Source: Escherichia coli (GTDB lineage: Bacteria > Pseudomonadota > Gammaproteobacteria > Enterobacterales > Enterobacteriaceae). Taken from it: a DNA stretch of 64,000 nucleotides. Below the pieces are notes generated by a model that ran no database searches, was not told the DNA's origin, and saw only the letters and a program-made list of their open reading frames with translations. Both the position numbers and the translations under genes were made by a program. Position 1 is the stretch's first letter. Every line of letters starts with the position of its first letter. Positions 26,010 to 58,643 of the stretch are shown here, in pieces. The stretch lies in assembly GCF_003334405.1 (NCBI RefSeq), contig NZ_QOWM01000007.1. The stretch is one strand, 5' to 3'.

Positions 26010-27413
26010 GTGTCACTTTCGCTTTGGCAGCAGTGTCTTGCCCGATTGCAGGATGAGTTACCAGCCACAGAATTCAGTATGTGGATACGCCCATTGCAGG
26101 CGGAACTGAGCGATAACACGCTGGCCCTGTACGCGCCAAACCGTTTTGTCCTCGATTGGGTACGGGACAAGTACCTTAATAATATCAATGGACTGCTAAC
26201 CAGTTTCTGCGGAGCGGATGCCCCACAGCTGCGTTTTGAAGTCGGCACCAAACCGGTGACGCAAACGCCACAAGCGGCAGTGACGAGCAACGTCGCGGCC
26301 CCTGCACAGGTGGCGCAAACGCAGCCGCAACGTGCTGCGCCTTCTACGCGCTCAGGTTGGGATAACGTCCCGGCCCCGGCAGAACCAACCTATCGTTCTA
26401 ACGTAAACGTCAAACACACGTTTGATAACTTCGTTGAAGGTAAATCTAACCAACTGGCGCGCGCGGCGGCTCGCCAGGTGGCGGATAACCCTGGCGGTGC
26501 CTATAACCCGTTGTTCCTTTATGGCGGCACGGGTCTGGGTAAAACTCACCTGCTGCATGCGGTGGGTAACGGCATTATGGCGCGCAAGCCGAATGCCAAA
26601 GTGGTTTATATGCACTCCGAGCGCTTTGTTCAGGACATGGTTAAAGCCCTGCAAAACAACGCGATCGAAGAGTTTAAACGCTACTACCGTTCCGTAGATG
26701 CACTGCTGATCGACGATATTCAGTTTTTTGCTAATAAAGAACGATCTCAGGAAGAGTTTTTCCACACCTTCAACGCCCTGCTGGAAGGTAATCAACAGAT
26801 CATTCTCACCTCGGATCGCTATCCGAAAGAGATCAACGGCGTTGAGGATCGTTTGAAATCCCGCTTCGGTTGGGGACTGACTGTGGCGATCGAACCGCCA
26901 GAGCTGGAAACCCGTGTGGCGATCCTGATGAAAAAGGCCGACGAAAACGACATTCGTTTGCCGGGCGAAGTGGCGTTCTTTATCGCCAAGCGTCTACGAT
27001 CTAACGTACGTGAGCTGGAAGGGGCGCTGAACCGCGTCATTGCCAATGCCAACTTTACCGGACGGGCGATCACCATCGACTTCGTGCGTGAGGCGCTGCG
27101 CGACTTGCTGGCATTGCAGGAAAAACTGGTCACCATCGACAATATTCAGAAGACGGTGGCGGAGTACTACAAGATCAAAGTCGCGGATCTCCTTTCCAAG
27201 CGTCGATCCCGCTCGGTGGCGCGTCCGCGCCAGATGGCGATGGCGCTGGCGAAAGAGCTGACTAACCACAGTCTGCCGGAGATTGGCGATGCGTTTGGTG
27301 GCCGTGACCACACGACGGTGCTTCATGCCTGCCGTAAGATCGAGCAGTTGCGTGAAGAGAGCCACGATATCAAAGAAGATTTTTCAAATTTAATCAGAAC
27401 ATTGTCATCGTAA
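26010..27413 (+). CDS. dnaA: Chromosomal replication initiator DnaA
   Basis: GTG at 26010 ([14 protein letters not shown]...) gives 467 aa; Walker [11 protein letters not shown]; track ORF from 25998 is a 5' extension. Confidence 0.96.
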
Positions 27414-32055: not shown

Positions 32056-32154
32056 GCCTGATGCGCTACGCTTATCAGGCCTACGAAAATCTTGCAATGT
32101 ATTGAATTTTCATGATTTTGTAGGCCGGATAAGGCGTTCACGCCGCATCCGGCA
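32056..32154. repeat. BIME: two REP palindromes in opposite orientation after gyrB
   Basis: gcctgatgcgctacgcttatcaggcctac (32056..32083) and taggccggataaggcgttcacgccgcatccggca (32121..32154). Confidence 0.7.
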
Positions 32155-54632: not shown

Positions 54633-55817
54633 TTAAACGGGCTGCCCCTGATGCGACATCCGCGTCGCCAGCGGCAGCCAGCACAGCACGATCAACAATC
54701 CCATTAAGGTCATCAACAACCCCAGGCTGCCCTGACCGGTTTGCGGCAACATCGCAGAGAGCGACGCCAGCACGCCGGAACCAATGTTTTGCAGACCGCC
54801 GACCAGCGCGCCAGCCGTGCCCGCCAGGAAGGGGAACGGCTCCATCGCGCCGCTGGTCGCCAGCGGAAACAGCATCCCGGCACCGAAAAAGAACAGCGCG
54901 GCGGGAACGAGCAGCGTCCAGACATTCATCACGCCAAACCAGTCGGGGATCCACATCAGCAAGCCAGCCAGCAGGCAGCAGATAACCGACTGCCACATTA
55001 ACGTGGAGAAGCGTTTATTGGGACGTCCGGCAAACCATGCGCCAAAAAACGCTGCCGGAATCGGCAGAATAAACAAAATACTGACCGTCATACTGCTCAG
55101 CCCTAACACCGCGCCCATCAGCACGCCGGAGCAGGCTTCAAAGGCGGCAATCCCGGCCAGACCGCCAATCAGCATCAGCAAATAACAGTTAAAACCGCTG
55201 TTACCGAAAAGCGTTTTATAACTGGTAAGCAGGCGCGTGCGCGGTGCATCGACCGGACGCGTTTCCGGCATCCAGCGGGCCATACTGAAGGTCACACCAG
55301 CACAAAGAACCAACAAAAAGAGATAACAGGCGCGCCAGTTCCACATCGTATCCAGCAGACCGCCGATTAGCGGTGCGAGCAACGGACTGACGAGAATCCC
55401 CATGTTTAACAGGCTGTTAGCATGGCGCAACTGTGTCCGTTCATATAAATCTCGCGGTAAAGTACGCGCCATTACGCCGCCAACGCCGGTGCCCATCCCC
55501 TGCATCGCGCTGGCGGCAATCAACACCGTCAAACTGGAGGTCGTGACCGCGACCAGCGTTGCCAGCATAAAAATGGACATTCCGACGAGGATCACCGGTC
55601 GGCGGCCCACGCGGTCGGAAATCGGGCCATAAAACAGCTGTGAGACACCGTAAGTCAGCAGATAAGCGCCCATTACGCTCTGCACCGCCCCTTCACGGAC
55701 GTTGAGATCGCGCGCCATATCGGCAATAGCTGGAATATAAATGGTTTGCGCCATCTGACCGACGGCCACGAGTAATACCAACATCAATAACAAATTGACG
55801 TTTCTTTGCCTTTTCAT
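54633..55817 (-). CDS. emrD: MFS multidrug efflux transporter EmrD
   Basis: ATG at 55817 (MKRQRNVNLLLMLVLL...) gives 394 aa. Confidence 0.93.
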   Translation of the reverse strand: MKRQRNVNLLLMLVLLVAVGQMAQTIYIPAIADMARDLNVREGAVQSVMGAYLLTYGVSQLFYGPISDRVGRRPVILVGMSIFMLATLVAVTTSSLTVLIAASAMQGMGTGVGGVMARTLPRDLYERTQLRHANSLLNMGILVSPLLAPLIGGLLDTMWNWRACYLFLLVLCAGVTFSMARWMPETRPVDAPRTRLLTSYKTLFGNSGFNCYLLMLIGGLAGIAAFEACSGVLMGAVLGLSSMTVSILFILPIPAAFFGAWFAGRPNKRFSTLMWQSVICCLLAGLLMWIPDWFGVMNVWTLLVPAALFFFGAGMLFPLATSGAMEPFPFLAGTAGALVGGLQNIGSGVLASLSAMLPQTGQGSLGLLMTLMGLLIVLCWLPLATRMSHQGQPV

Positions 55818-55991
55818 TATCACGGATGCTTTTATAAAAATAATTAGAATAAGTCACTACGCATTCCCATAAATGCGGGAGAGGAATCTATCACATTGAT
55901 GAATGTTAGCCAGATATACGCCAGGAATGGGGAATTGTTTAGCGGCAGAATATGTAAACAAAAGCGGCAATAAATGTTGCCGGGAGAGATG

Positions 55992-56029
55992 GTAGGGCGG
56001 ATAAGATGCGTCAGCATCGCATCCGACAC
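55992..56029. repeat. REP-like palindrome between emrD and tisB
   Basis: gtagggcggataagatgcgtcagcatcgcatccgacac. Confidence 0.5.
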
Positions 56030-56040
56030 CAACCCGCACG

Positions 56041-56074
56041 CTAAATATAAAAGGGGAGCGGTTTCCCGCTCCCC
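56041..56074 (-). terminator. Rho-independent terminator of tisAB
   Basis: Stem ggggagcgg / ccgctcccc, loop tttc; minus strand followed by ttttatattt. Confidence 0.75.
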
Positions 56075-56096
56075 TTTGGTGCGACTTGAATCTGAA

Positions 56097-56186
56097 TTAC
56101 TTCAGGTATTTCAGAACAGCATCAAGCAGTTGCAGTGCTGCAACAATGAGTTTGAGGATAAGAATGGCGATATCCACCAGGTTCAT
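56097..56186 (-). CDS. tisB: Type I toxin TisB (SOS-induced membrane peptide)
   Basis: 29-codon ORF read by hand: MNLVDIAILILKLIVAALQLLDAVLKYLK. Confidence 0.9.
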   Translation of the reverse strand: MNLVDIAILILKLIVAALQLLDAVLKYLK

Positions 56187-56296
56187 ACGCGTCTCCTGTG
56201 GTTCAGGAGCACTGCCAGCTGACGTACCTTTCCGCTGCCTGTTGCCAGCTGTTGTGCACGCGGTATCTCAAGGAGAAACGTTGTGCTTGTTGACAT
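56183..56296 (-). CDS. tisA: tisA upstream ORF of the tisAB transcript
   Basis: 37-codon ORF MSTSTTFLLEIPRAQQLATGSGKVRQLAVLLNHRRRV; stop overlaps tisB start (ATGA); start region overlaps the IstR-complementary sequence. Confidence 0.55.
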   Translation of the reverse strand: MSTSTTFLLEIPRAQQLATGSGKVRQLAVLLNHRRRV

Positions 56297-56420
56297 AACA
56301 CAGTGTGCTCACGCGGGGTTAAGGCGCTGACGGCACCACCCGTTTCAGCCAGGACTTAGTGCGCCGGGTAACGATGCGGCCCCCGCATAACACATTGCGT
56401 ACAGTGATATTATAGAAGTT

Positions 56421-56440
56421 TACTGTATAAATAAACAGTA
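56421..56440. promoter_or_regulatory. LexA box (SOS box)
   Basis: tactgtataaataaacagta, perfect CTGT-N8-ACAG palindrome between divergent tisAB and istR. Confidence 0.85.
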
Positions 56441-56546
56441 ATATTTGGACAAAACGCAAACTGTGATCGATACTCAACTATGCACTAAATACGTCAAAAT
56501 TCGTGCCGAAATTGCGCGTTCTGCGCGGAACACGTATACTTTCAGT

Positions 56547-56621
56547 GTTGACATAATACAGTGTGCTTTGCGGTTACCAGCCGCAGGCGACTGACGAAAC
56601 CTCGCTCCGGCGGGGTTTTTT
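56547..56621 (+). ncRNA. istR: IstR-1 antitoxin sRNA (IstR-2 would be a 5'-extended form starting near 56480)
   Basis: TATACT -10 at 56535..56540 with TTGCGC -35 at 17-bp spacing; 75-nt unit ending in hairpin cctcgc-uccg-gcgggg + U6; 5' end repeats 20/21 nt of 56289..56309. Confidence 0.75.
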
Positions 56622-56750
56622 GTTATCTGCAATTCAGTACAAAACGTGATCAACCCCTCAATTTTCCCTTGCTGAAAAATTTTCCATTGTCTCCCCTGTA
56701 AAGCTGTGCTTGTATAAATATTGTTAAACACAAAACCAACAAGGTCCCCA

Positions 56751-56849
56751 ATGACTACTTCCATGCTCAACGCAAAACTACTACCAACTGCGCCATCCGC
56801 CGCAGTGGTCGTCGTGCGTGTGGTGGTGGTCGTCGGCAATGCGCCGTAG
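56751..56849 (+). CDS. ivbL: ilvB operon leader peptide IvbL
   Basis: 32-codon ORF read by hand: MTTSMLNAKLLPTAPSAAVVVVRVVVVVGNAP. Confidence 0.9.
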   Translation: MTTSMLNAKLLPTAPSAAVVVVRVVVVVGNAP

Positions 56850-56873
56850 GGACTGGAACAACACACGATTCCA

Positions 56874-56907
56874 AAACCCCGCCGGCGCAAACCGGGCGGG
56901 GTTTTTC
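56874..56907 (+). terminator. ilvB attenuator terminator
   Basis: Stem ccccgccgg / ccgggcgggg (one bulge), loop cgcaaa, then T5; 47 bp before ilvB ATG. Confidence 0.8.
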
Positions 56908-56954
56908 GTTTAAGCACCTCCCGGAAAGTCGGCCCAGAAGAAAAGGACTGGAGC

Positions 56955-58643
56955 ATGGCAAGTTCGGGCACAACATCGACGCGTAAGCGCTTTACCGGCG
57001 CAGAATTTATCGTTCATTTCCTGGAACAGCAGGGCATTAAGATTGTGACAGGCATTCCGGGCGGTTCTATCCTGCCTGTTTACGATGCCTTAAGCCAAAG
57101 CACGCAAATCCGCCATATTCTGGCCCGTCATGAACAGGGCGCGGGCTTTATCGCTCAGGGAATGGCGCGCACCGACGGTAAACCGGCGGTCTGTATGGCC
57201 TGTAGCGGACCGGGTGCGACTAACCTGGTGACCGCCATTGCCGATGCGCGGCTGGACTCCATCCCGCTGATTTGCATCACTGGTCAGGTTCCCGCCTCGA
57301 TGATCGGCACCGACGCCTTCCAGGAAGTGGACACCTACGGCATCTCTATCCCCATCACCAAACACAACTATCTGGTCAGACATATCGAAGAACTCCCGCA
57401 GGTCATGAGCGATGCCTTCCGCATTGCGCAATCAGGCCGCCCAGGCCCGGTGTGGATAGACATTCCTAAGGATGTGCAAACGGCAGTTTTTGAGATTGAA
57501 ACACAGCCCGCTATGGCAGAAAAAGCCGCCGCCCCCGCCTTTAGCGAAGAAAGCATTCGTGACGCAGCGGCGATGATTAACGCTGCCAAACGCCCGGTGC
57601 TTTATCTGGGCGGCGGTGTGATCAATGCGCCCGCACGGGTGCGTGAACTGGCGGAGAAAGCGCAACTGCCTACCACCATGACTTTAATGGCGCTGGGCAT
57701 GTTGCCAAAAGCGCATCCGTTGTCGCTGGGTATGCTGGGGATGCACGGCGTGCGCAGCACCAACTATATTTTGCAGGAGGCGGATTTGTTGATAGTGCTC
57801 GGTGCGCGTTTTGATGACCGGGCGATTGGCAAAACCGAGCAGTTCTGTCCGAATGCCAAAATCATTCATGTCGATATCGACCGTGCAGAGCTGGGTAAAA
57901 TCAAGCAGCCGCACGTGGCGATTCAGGCGGATGTTGATGACGTGCTGGCGCAGTTGATCCCGCTGGTGGAAGCGCAACCGCGTGCAGAGTGGCACCAGTT
58001 GGTAGCGGATTTGCAGCGTGAGTTTCCGTGTCCAATCCCGAAAGCGTGCGATCCGTTAAGCCATTACGGCCTGATCAACGCCGTTGCCGCCTGTGTCGAT
58101 GACAATGCAATTATCACCACCGACGTTGGTCAGCATCAGATGTGGACCGCGCAAGCTTATCCGCTCAATCGCCCACGCCAGTGGCTGACCTCCGGTGGGC
58201 TGGGCACGATGGGTTTTGGCCTGCCTGCGGCGATTGGCGCTGCGCTGGCGAACCCGGATCGCAAAGTGTTGTGTTTCTCCGGCGACGGCAGCCTGATGAT
58301 GAATATTCAGGAGATGGCGACCGCCAGTGAAAATCAGCTGGATGTCAAAATCATTCTGATGAACAACGAAGCGCTGGGGCTGGTGCATCAGCAACAGAGT
58401 CTGTTCTACGAGCAAGGCGTTTTTGCCGCCACCTATCCGGGCAAAATCAACTTTATGCAGATTGCCGCCGGATTCGGCCTCGAAACCTGTGATTTGAATA
58501 ACGAAGCCGATCCGCAGGCTTCATTGCAGGAAATCATCAATCGCCCTGGCCCGGCGCTGATCCATGTGCGCATTGATGCCGAAGAAAAAGTTTACCCGAT
58601 GGTGCCGCCAGGTGCGGCGAATACTGAAATGGTGGGGGAATAA
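56955..58643 (+). CDS. ilvB: Acetolactate synthase I large subunit IlvB
   Basis: 562 aa ThDP enzyme; GDG-type ThDP motif region CFSGDGSLMMNIQE. Confidence 0.96.
   Translation: MASSGTTSTRKRFTGAEFIVHFLEQQGIKIVTGIPGGSILPVYDALSQSTQIRHILARHEQGAGFIAQGMARTDGKPAVCMACSGPGATNLVTAIADARLDSIPLICITGQVPASMIGTDAFQEVDTYGISIPITKHNYLVRHIEELPQVMSDAFRIAQSGRPGPVWIDIPKDVQTAVFEIETQPAMAEKAAAPAFSEESIRDAAAMINAAKRPVLYLGGGVINAPARVRELAEKAQLPTTMTLMALGMLPKAHPLSLGMLGMHGVRSTNYILQEADLLIVLGARFDDRAIGKTEQFCPNAKIIHVDIDRAELGKIKQPHVAIQADVDDVLAQLIPLVEAQPRAEWHQLVADLQREFPCPIPKACDPLSHYGLINAVAACVDDNAIITTDVGQHQMWTAQAYPLNRPRQWLTSGGLGTMGFGLPAAIGAALANPDRKVLCFSGDGSLMMNIQEMATASENQLDVKIILMNNEALGLVHQQQSLFYEQGVFAATYPGKINFMQIAAGFGLETCDLNNEADPQASLQEIINRPGPALIHVRIDAEEKVYPMVPPGAANTEMVGE

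Follow-up and report, generated by a model that had tools for sequence, protein, structure and literature searches.

The chromosomal tisB/istR-1 type I toxin-antitoxin module in a 64-kb Escherichia coli sequence: antisense pairing, conservation across genera and a probably non-coding tisA

Introduction

The tisB/istR-1 system of Escherichia coli, reportedly described by Vogel et al. in 2004 and by Darfeuille et al. in 2007, is, of the chromosomal type I toxin-antitoxin (TA) systems, the one characterised best, and it serves as the reference for ribosome standby and for SOS-dependent persister formation. The system has been reviewed (PMC4147584, PMC5668327). Exposure to UV or ciprofloxacin switches on tisB and istR-2 (PMC3009722, PMC2826370), the tisAB transcript is 359 nt long (PMC2577331), and in the +42 form of the mRNA a single-stranded region ~100 nt upstream of the RBS is the standby site, at which 30S subunits load via protein S1 (PMC6690012). 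Pairing of IstR-1 blocks standby and RNase III converts the mRNA to an inert +106 form (PMC6690012, PMC4147584), while TisB itself depolarises the inner membrane and promotes persisters (PMC2826370).

Three other divergent type I systems, dinQ/agrB, zorO/orzO as well as shoB/ohsC, work like tisB/istR-1: toxin and sRNA come from divergent, non-overlapping units, the sRNA is complementary to a stretch of the toxin's long 5' UTR that lies well away from the RBS, the primary mRNA becomes active only after 5' processing and dinQ is likewise LexA-controlled (PMC4147584, PMC5668327). They differ from tisB/istR-1 in their toxins and sRNAs, and dinQ does without standby, AgrB remodelling the mRNA so that the Shine-Dalgarno (SD) sequence is sequestered (PMC5668327). 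The hok/mok/sok system is, like tisB/istR-1, a type I TA whose toxin is a small membrane protein, whose primary mRNA is inert and is activated by processing, and whose duplex is cleaved by RNase III; in hok/mok/sok, however, Sok overlaps its target in cis and blocks the translated leader ORF mok, which is coupled to hok, whereas in tisB/istR-1 tisA is neither translated nor conserved and the sRNA acts in trans on the standby site.

Here we describe a locus of this kind in a 64,000-nucleotide stretch of E. coli DNA (the window). Compared with tisB/istR-1 of K-12 it has the same sequence, toxin, sRNA, LexA box, promoters, 21/22-nt repeat and neighbours, and no differences were found. The finding is already known: this is an ordinary tisB/istR-1 locus that adds nothing to knowledge of the system, and it is of use mainly as a calibration, every element having been placed correctly from raw sequence by the original prediction. 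This analysis established the identity of the locus, all its sequence elements, the duplex and how far it is conserved, the hairpin at the RBS and the lack of coding function in tisA; SOS induction, processing, standby, RNase III cleavage and phenotype are taken from the literature.

Results and Discussion

Identity and layout of the locus

The 1101 bases from 55800 to 56900 are 100% identical to the corresponding sequence of E. coli K-12 MG1655, and this tisB/istR stretch has a match in all but one of the complete E. coli genomes (5425 of 5426). The gene order around tisB in the RefSeq annotation is emrD-ysdE-tisB-ivbL-ilvB, which places the locus between emrD and ivbL-ilvB. The IstR sRNA was recognised by both sequence and structure, Rfam RF01400 (istR) matching 56492..56621 with 150.1 bits (gathering score 45) over the complete model (1-130), and the translation of 56097..56186 on the minus strand, MNLVDIAILILKLIVAALQLLDAVLKYLK, matched two NCBIfam equivalogs over its full length of residues 1-29 (NF011340, 69.6 bits against a cut-off of 53; TIGR04459, 59.9 bits against a cut-off of 38). 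Because of the MG1655 identity, the RefSeq tisB annotation, the RF01400 match and the TisB models, we identify the locus as the chromosomal type I TA module tisB/istR-1 (tisAB-istR) of E. coli K-12, with the mechanism set out below, at a probability of about 97%; nothing contradicts this identity. The same evidence upholds the original prediction where it equated the locus with the known tisAB-istR system, an account in which the module was named rightly but the longer, LexA-controlled IstR-2 was left unmentioned. The elements of the module are the following.

56041..56077, minus strand: tisAB intrinsic terminator, the 3' end of the 359-nt tisAB RNA (inverted repeat and terminator scan)
56097..56186, minus strand: tisB, encoding a 29-aa hydrophobic toxin (ORF, NCBIfam, RefSeq annotation)
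56183..56296, minus strand: tisA ORF of 37 codons, an untranslated part of the tisB leader (ORF listing)
56189..56212, minus strand: putative hairpin sequestering the tisB SD (AGGAG, 56193..56197) against CUCCU (13-orthologue consensus)
56216..56251, minus strand: predicted conserved leader helix inside the tisA ORF (13-orthologue consensus)
56288..56309, minus strand: repeat copy 1, the IstR-1 target and ribosome standby site, about +95 to +116 (repeat search, duplex)
56358..56403, minus strand: 5' region of the primary tisAB mRNA, with +1 at ~56403 and the +42 site at ~56362 (placed to within 1-2 nt)
56409..56414, minus strand: -10 hexamer TATAAT of the tisAB promoter (sequence)
56421..56440, no strand: LexA box TACTGTATAAATAAACAGTA, upstream of both the tisAB -10 (by 6 bp) and the istR-2 -35 (by 5 bp)
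56446..56474, plus strand: istR-2 promoter, TGGACA, 17-nt spacer, GATACT (promoter scan)
56481..56621, plus strand: IstR-2, the longer, SOS-induced sRNA, with IstR-1 wholly inside it (probable 5' end; Rfam match from 56492)
56535..56540, plus strand: -10 hexamer TATACT of the istR-1 promoter, constitutive and LexA-independent (sequence)
56546..56567, plus strand: repeat copy 2, the antisense 5' end of IstR-1 (repeat search, duplex)
56547..56621, plus strand: IstR-1, the 75-nt antitoxin sRNA (predicted fold, terminator scan, Rfam)

Among the elements predicted from the letters of the sequence, these were confirmed as follows: the 29-codon tisB on the minus strand, by the ORF listing and the equivalog models; the terminator downstream of it, by inverted-repeat and terminator scans that found a perfect 12-bp inverted repeat with 8 G-C pairs (56050..56077, minus strand) followed by the T-rich tail TATATTT; and the 75-nt IstR-1 unit on the plus strand, by its TATACT hexamer, its terminator hairpin with a T6 run and the Rfam match. 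Residue 2 of TisB (codon 2 at 56181-56183, minus strand) is Asn, the K-12 variant. About 85% of E. coli strains carry Ser2, and of the N2 and S2 variants Ser2 is the more toxic at low induction (PMC11264685); among the orthologues described below, residue 2 was Ser or Gly in all 12 from which TisB was recovered.

LexA box, promoters and mRNA ends

The LexA box at the tisAB promoter had been predicted as perfect. Its position and its CTGT-N8-ACAG core stood, but the whole box TACTGTATAAATAAACAGTA matched the palindrome TACTGTATATATATACAGTA at 18 of 20 positions, with 2 mismatches. It was the sole site within three mismatches of TACTGTATATATATACAGTA in the 64-kb window, and no such site occurred in 100 shuffles. 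An identical box stands in the motif table of PMC3009722, and its heterology index is 1.81 (PMC5668327). The promoter hexamers likewise agreed with published ones: TATAAT is the tisAB -10 in Table 1 of PMC11264685, and the same paper gives TGGACA and GATACT for istR-2 and reports 100% conservation in E. coli for the istR-1 -10 TATACT. That the SOS response induces tisAB and istR-2 and that istR-1 is expressed constitutively has been published for exactly this sequence (PMC2826370, PMC3009722); on these points our sequence check covered the promoter hexamers only.

The +1 and +42 ends of the tisAB mRNA were placed from the position of the -10 hexamer, the published length of 359 nt (PMC2577331) and the position of a 20-mer antisense to uxaA, and these ends, like the 5' end of IstR-2, are good to within 1-2 nt. 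A +1 at ~56403 is consistent with a start 6-7 nt downstream of TATAAT (56414..56409), with a 359-nt RNA ending at the terminator, with the uxaA-antisense 20-mer (56358..56377) spanning +27..+46 around the +42 site, and with a +106 end (~56298) that falls inside the IstR-1 duplex, as in PMC6690012.

The 21-nt repeat and the IstR-1/tisAB duplex

The sequence GTTGACATAA[C/T]ACAGTGTGCT occurs at 56289..56309 and 56547..56567, the two copies being identical at 20 of 21 positions (C versus T at position 11), and one extra T extends the repeat to 22 nt (56288..56309 and 56546..56567). The 22-nt sequence AGCACACTGTGTTATGTCAACA is quoted in PMC2577331, there as 'the 22-nt istR repeat'. Since these two copies were the only matches in the window and none was found in 100 dinucleotide-preserving shuffles, the repeat is far beyond chance. 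Both the direct repeat and its consequence, RNAs that are complementary in trans because the units are divergent, had been read correctly in the original prediction, the latter being already published (PMC2577331).

The stable helix that the prediction had anticipated between IstR-1 and the tisAB leader was obtained: IstR-1 nt 1-21 and the target at 56289..56309 formed 21 consecutive pairs, one of them a G·U that reflects the C/T difference, with an energy of -33.5 kcal/mol. The same helix formed when IstR-1 was cofolded with the +42 leader, with -29 kcal/mol gained over the monomers. When the window was scanned on both strands for targets of IstR-1 nt 1-30 and the trivial antisense strand of istR itself was set aside, the tisAB leader ranked best (-45.2 versus -29.5 kcal/mol for the next site). 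The two genes at the locus diverge without overlapping, and the 5' end of IstR-1 and the tisB 5' UTR are complementary in trans over about 21 nt. The duplex evidence rests on the 21-nt core and the cofolding and not on an RNAduplex calculation for full-length IstR-1 against the whole mRNA, whose 70-nt duplex (-78 kcal/mol, z = -6) was rejected as inflated, the calculation ignoring intramolecular structure. IstR-1 is laid out as a single-stranded 5' tail, an internal hairpin and a terminator hairpin (56596..56619) with U6, and its first 12 nt, unpaired in the predicted fold, would suit the start of pairing. We found no compensatory-mutation test between the two 21-nt copies in the cited literature.

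The repeat core recurs a third time, in part, as CATAACACATTG at 56386-56397 on the plus strand; this copy is identical at 11 of 12 positions and corresponds to nt 7-18 of the primary tisAB mRNA.

Conservation across Enterobacteriaceae

A degenerate IstR DNA pattern run on species-representative genomes recovered 14 loci, from Escherichia, Salmonella, Citrobacter, Siccibacter, Franconibacter, Pseudenterobacter and unclassified Enterobacteriaceae. The pattern fixed some repeat positions, which biases the set towards conserved IstR and makes invariance at those positions partly one of construction; it put no constraint on positions 7, 11 and 14-21 and did not reach position 5. A second copy of the repeat with at most one difference was present 247-257 nt upstream of IstR-1 in all 13 loci with enough DNA, a divergent 29-aa TisB in all 12 with enough flanking DNA, and TisB together with an exact LexA box in 11 of these 12. 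Considered by itself, an exact CTGT-N8-ACAG box lay at the expected distance in 13 of the 14 loci, a count that includes two loci without tisB DNA (L007 and L012). Locus L013 (Enterobacteriaceae RIT714) has a degenerate box, TACTGTTCATGCATCCAGT, in which CCAG replaces ACAG and which the CTGT-N8-ACAG search missed; this suggests that SOS repression of tisB may be weaker in the RIT714 lineage.

Pairing was analysed on a chimeric alignment in which the 5' end of IstR was joined to its target. Across the orthologues 98% of duplex cells were paired, with 16 of the 21 pairs invariant and two varying only by wobble. At IstR nt 7 both partners changed together, from A-U to G-C (5 versus 6 distinct sequences, with one intermediate), and the other departures were A·C mismatches at IstR nt 5, 7 and 18. 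An A·C mismatch was seen in Siccibacter and Franconibacter (at nt 5), UBA3516 and two Citrobacter (Awk4 and NCU1, at nt 7), so that several genera tolerate one and complementarity is not perfectly kept everywhere. Taken together, the alignment offers modest but positive evidence that complementarity, and not sequence alone, has been maintained.

An 11-nt segment, CTATGCACTAA (56478-56488, plus strand), lies between the istR-2 -10 and the conserved body of IstR-2 and was found only in the two Escherichia sequences. Since the 5' end placed for E. coli IstR-2 falls inside this Escherichia-only segment, the 5' end of IstR-2 probably differs in other genera.

The structured tisB leader, tisA and alternative readings

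The consensus structure of the 13 orthologues indicates that the tisB RBS is structured and sequestered. In the hairpin at 56189..56212 the core pairs are invariant and the outer pairs vary, with some compensatory changes, and the stretch from SD to AUG was unpaired with a probability of about 0.2 whichever mRNA form was folded; the distal standby function itself is taken from PMC6690012. Upstream, the helix at 56216..56251 comprises 8 pairs, 4 of which show changes on both sides that keep the pair. The 3' half of tisA thus reads as two helices with compensatory changes, the second of which pairs CUCCU with the AGGAG of tisB.

About 34 nt of the leader (56250-56283, minus strand) are absent from 8 of 13 orthologues (L003, L004, L005, L008, L009, L013, L014, L015). 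In E. coli the segment forms a small CUC/GAG hairpin inside 'tisA'; because it is limited to Escherichia, Salmonella and two Citrobacter representatives, its gain or loss in the 5' UTR is lineage-specific.

These features bear on whether the module could instead be built like hok/mok/sok, with tisA translated, tisB coupled to it through the ATGA overlap (56186..56183) and IstR-1 occluding the tisA start codon. Such a design was suggested by the wording of the original prediction, which treated tisA as a gene and noted that the repeat covers its start; the 37-codon ORF and its overlap with tisB are indeed present, and the AUG (56296..56294) does lie inside the duplex (56289..56309). As a gene, however, tisA did not hold up. 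We found no Shine-Dalgarno sequence upstream of its AUG and no NCBIfam family for its product, the ATG reads ACG in 8 of 13 orthologues, and neither frame nor length is kept: the ORF ends elsewhere in Salmonella (31 aa) and even in a second Escherichia representative (27 aa), and the 34 nt missing from eight orthologues are not a multiple of three. Its 3' half is kept by base-pair covariation and not by codons, PMC2826370 describes tisA as an 'untranslated open reading frame', and standby loading has been shown biochemically (PMC6690012). An ATGA overlap does not by itself make the tisA ORF a gene, which is the key correction here: by cross-genus comparison the region is conserved as RNA structure, not as coding sequence, and tisA is most probably non-coding. 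It is not a translated, coupled upstream ORF blocked by an antisense RNA, and we regard a hok-like design as very unlikely. Since tisA is untranslated and its region is conserved as RNA helices, IstR-1 does not act through tisA translation; it blocks the standby site and triggers RNase III cleavage, and it is through the standby site that the duplex matters (PMC6690012, PMC4147584).

Two further readings concern the repeat and the choice of antitoxin. That the repeat arose by chance or is the relic of a duplication, with no meaning for regulation and no interaction of its transcripts, has nothing behind it beyond the fact that short repeats do arise by chance and that other two-copy families (D3-D5) lie nearby; against it stand the empty shuffles, the retention of both copies with at most one difference in at least six genera while the flanks diverge, the compensatory switch from A-U to G-C, and the experimental demonstration of pairing, RNase III cleavage and rescue from toxicity (PMC4147584). 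Already refuted by this published genetics, it has a negligible probability. IstR-2 in place of IstR-1 as the working antitoxin, in a feed-forward loop with tisAB under one LexA box, would draw on more: IstR-2 contains the whole of IstR-1 with its 21-nt tract, its promoter abuts the LexA box, UV turns it on (PMC3009722), and deletion of the istR-2 promoter gives an unexplained low-persister phenotype (PMC2826370). Yet the predicted fold of IstR-2 has part of the antisense tract paired with the extra 5' sequence, and IstR-2 does not repress tisB (PMC11264685, PMC2826370), being LexA-controlled with no part in tisB control (PMC2826370), so that this assignment too is highly improbable.

IstR-1 is accordingly kept as the antitoxin. 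Three smaller points concern mainly how the module evolved. The single co-varying position of the duplex, IstR-1 nt 7, is at the same time the middle base of the tisA 'ATG', and for that reason the tisA ORF seen in E. coli and Salmonella looks like a side effect of one antisense-tract allele. More speculatively, IstR-2 may have a target or function of its own that would explain the promoter-deletion phenotype of PMC2826370, an idea that the present data neither support nor exclude. Taken jointly with the tolerance of A·C mismatches, we give these points a low probability.

Proposed mechanism

The tisB/istR-1 mechanism, as drawn from PMC4147584, PMC6690012, PMC5668327, PMC2826370 and PMC2577331, would operate on this sequence as follows. 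LexA at 56421..56440 would repress two promoters, that of tisAB on the minus strand and that of istR-2 on the plus strand, and DNA damage would lead to synthesis of the 359-nt tisAB RNA. This primary RNA would be untranslatable, its SD held in a hairpin and the upstream standby region closed, until loss of the first 41 nt opened a single-stranded standby site ~100 nt upstream of the tisB RBS, where 30S subunits would load via protein S1 and from there slide to the RBS. The TATACT promoter would supply IstR-1 constitutively, and the free 5' 21 nt of this sRNA would pair exactly with the standby site, which is possible because two divergent transcription units share the same 21-nt sequence as a direct repeat in the DNA; standby would then be blocked and RNase III would cut the mRNA to the inert +106 form. 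Once tisAB mRNA exceeded IstR-1, TisB would be made and enter the inner membrane, where the proton motive force would collapse and persisters would be promoted.

The thermodynamic test of the closed/open switch was weakly supportive. The mean unpaired probability of the target rose modestly, from 0.39 in the +1 form to 0.50 in the +42 form, and in the minimum-free-energy fold of the +1 form the 5' end paired with part of the target. No covariation was found in the consensus fold of the +1 leader, a region that is almost invariant and for which the alifold consensus differed, so that the comparison lends the switch no independent support. In the predicted +1 fold it is the 5' segment with the third repeat copy that pairs with part of the standby/IstR-1 target, the core ACACAGTGT being nearly palindromic, and this would fit the published inhibitory 5' structure.

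Other features of the window

Two segments of the tisAB RNA antisense to other genes, uxaA (20 nt, 56358-56377, minus strand) and dinD (16 nt, 56117-56132, minus strand), were both present exactly; uxaA and dinD are given as antisense partners of tisAB RNA in PMC2577331, and neither partner sequence occurs in the 64-kb window. Between tisB and emrD lies a REP-like palindrome (55996-56028, minus strand), and a single REP is mentioned at the tisB/emrD site in PMC2577331. The Rfam naRNA4 match to it (55996..56028), with 22 bits against a gathering score of 59.5, was rejected and read as the REP element. The small ORF ysdE (24 aa, 55899-55973, plus strand) is annotated by RefSeq between emrD and tisB, and a terminator-like hairpin lies at 55965..55982 on the strand opposite ysdE. 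On the other side of the module, 56751-56849 (plus strand) encodes the ivbL leader peptide MTTSMLNAKLLPTAPSAAVVVVRVVVVVGNAP, which is rich in Val and Leu; an Rfam match to 'Pseudomonas P6' at 56875..57060 (22 bits against 50) was dismissed as only the G+C-rich terminator hairpin of the ilvB attenuator. No tRNA genes were found in the window. Other Rfam matches above their gathering scores were AsdA, the antisense RNA of dnaA mRNA (26520-26600, minus strand), ES036 (CssrF; 32077-32119, minus strand) and the ROSE_2 RNA thermometer (42251-42323, plus strand).
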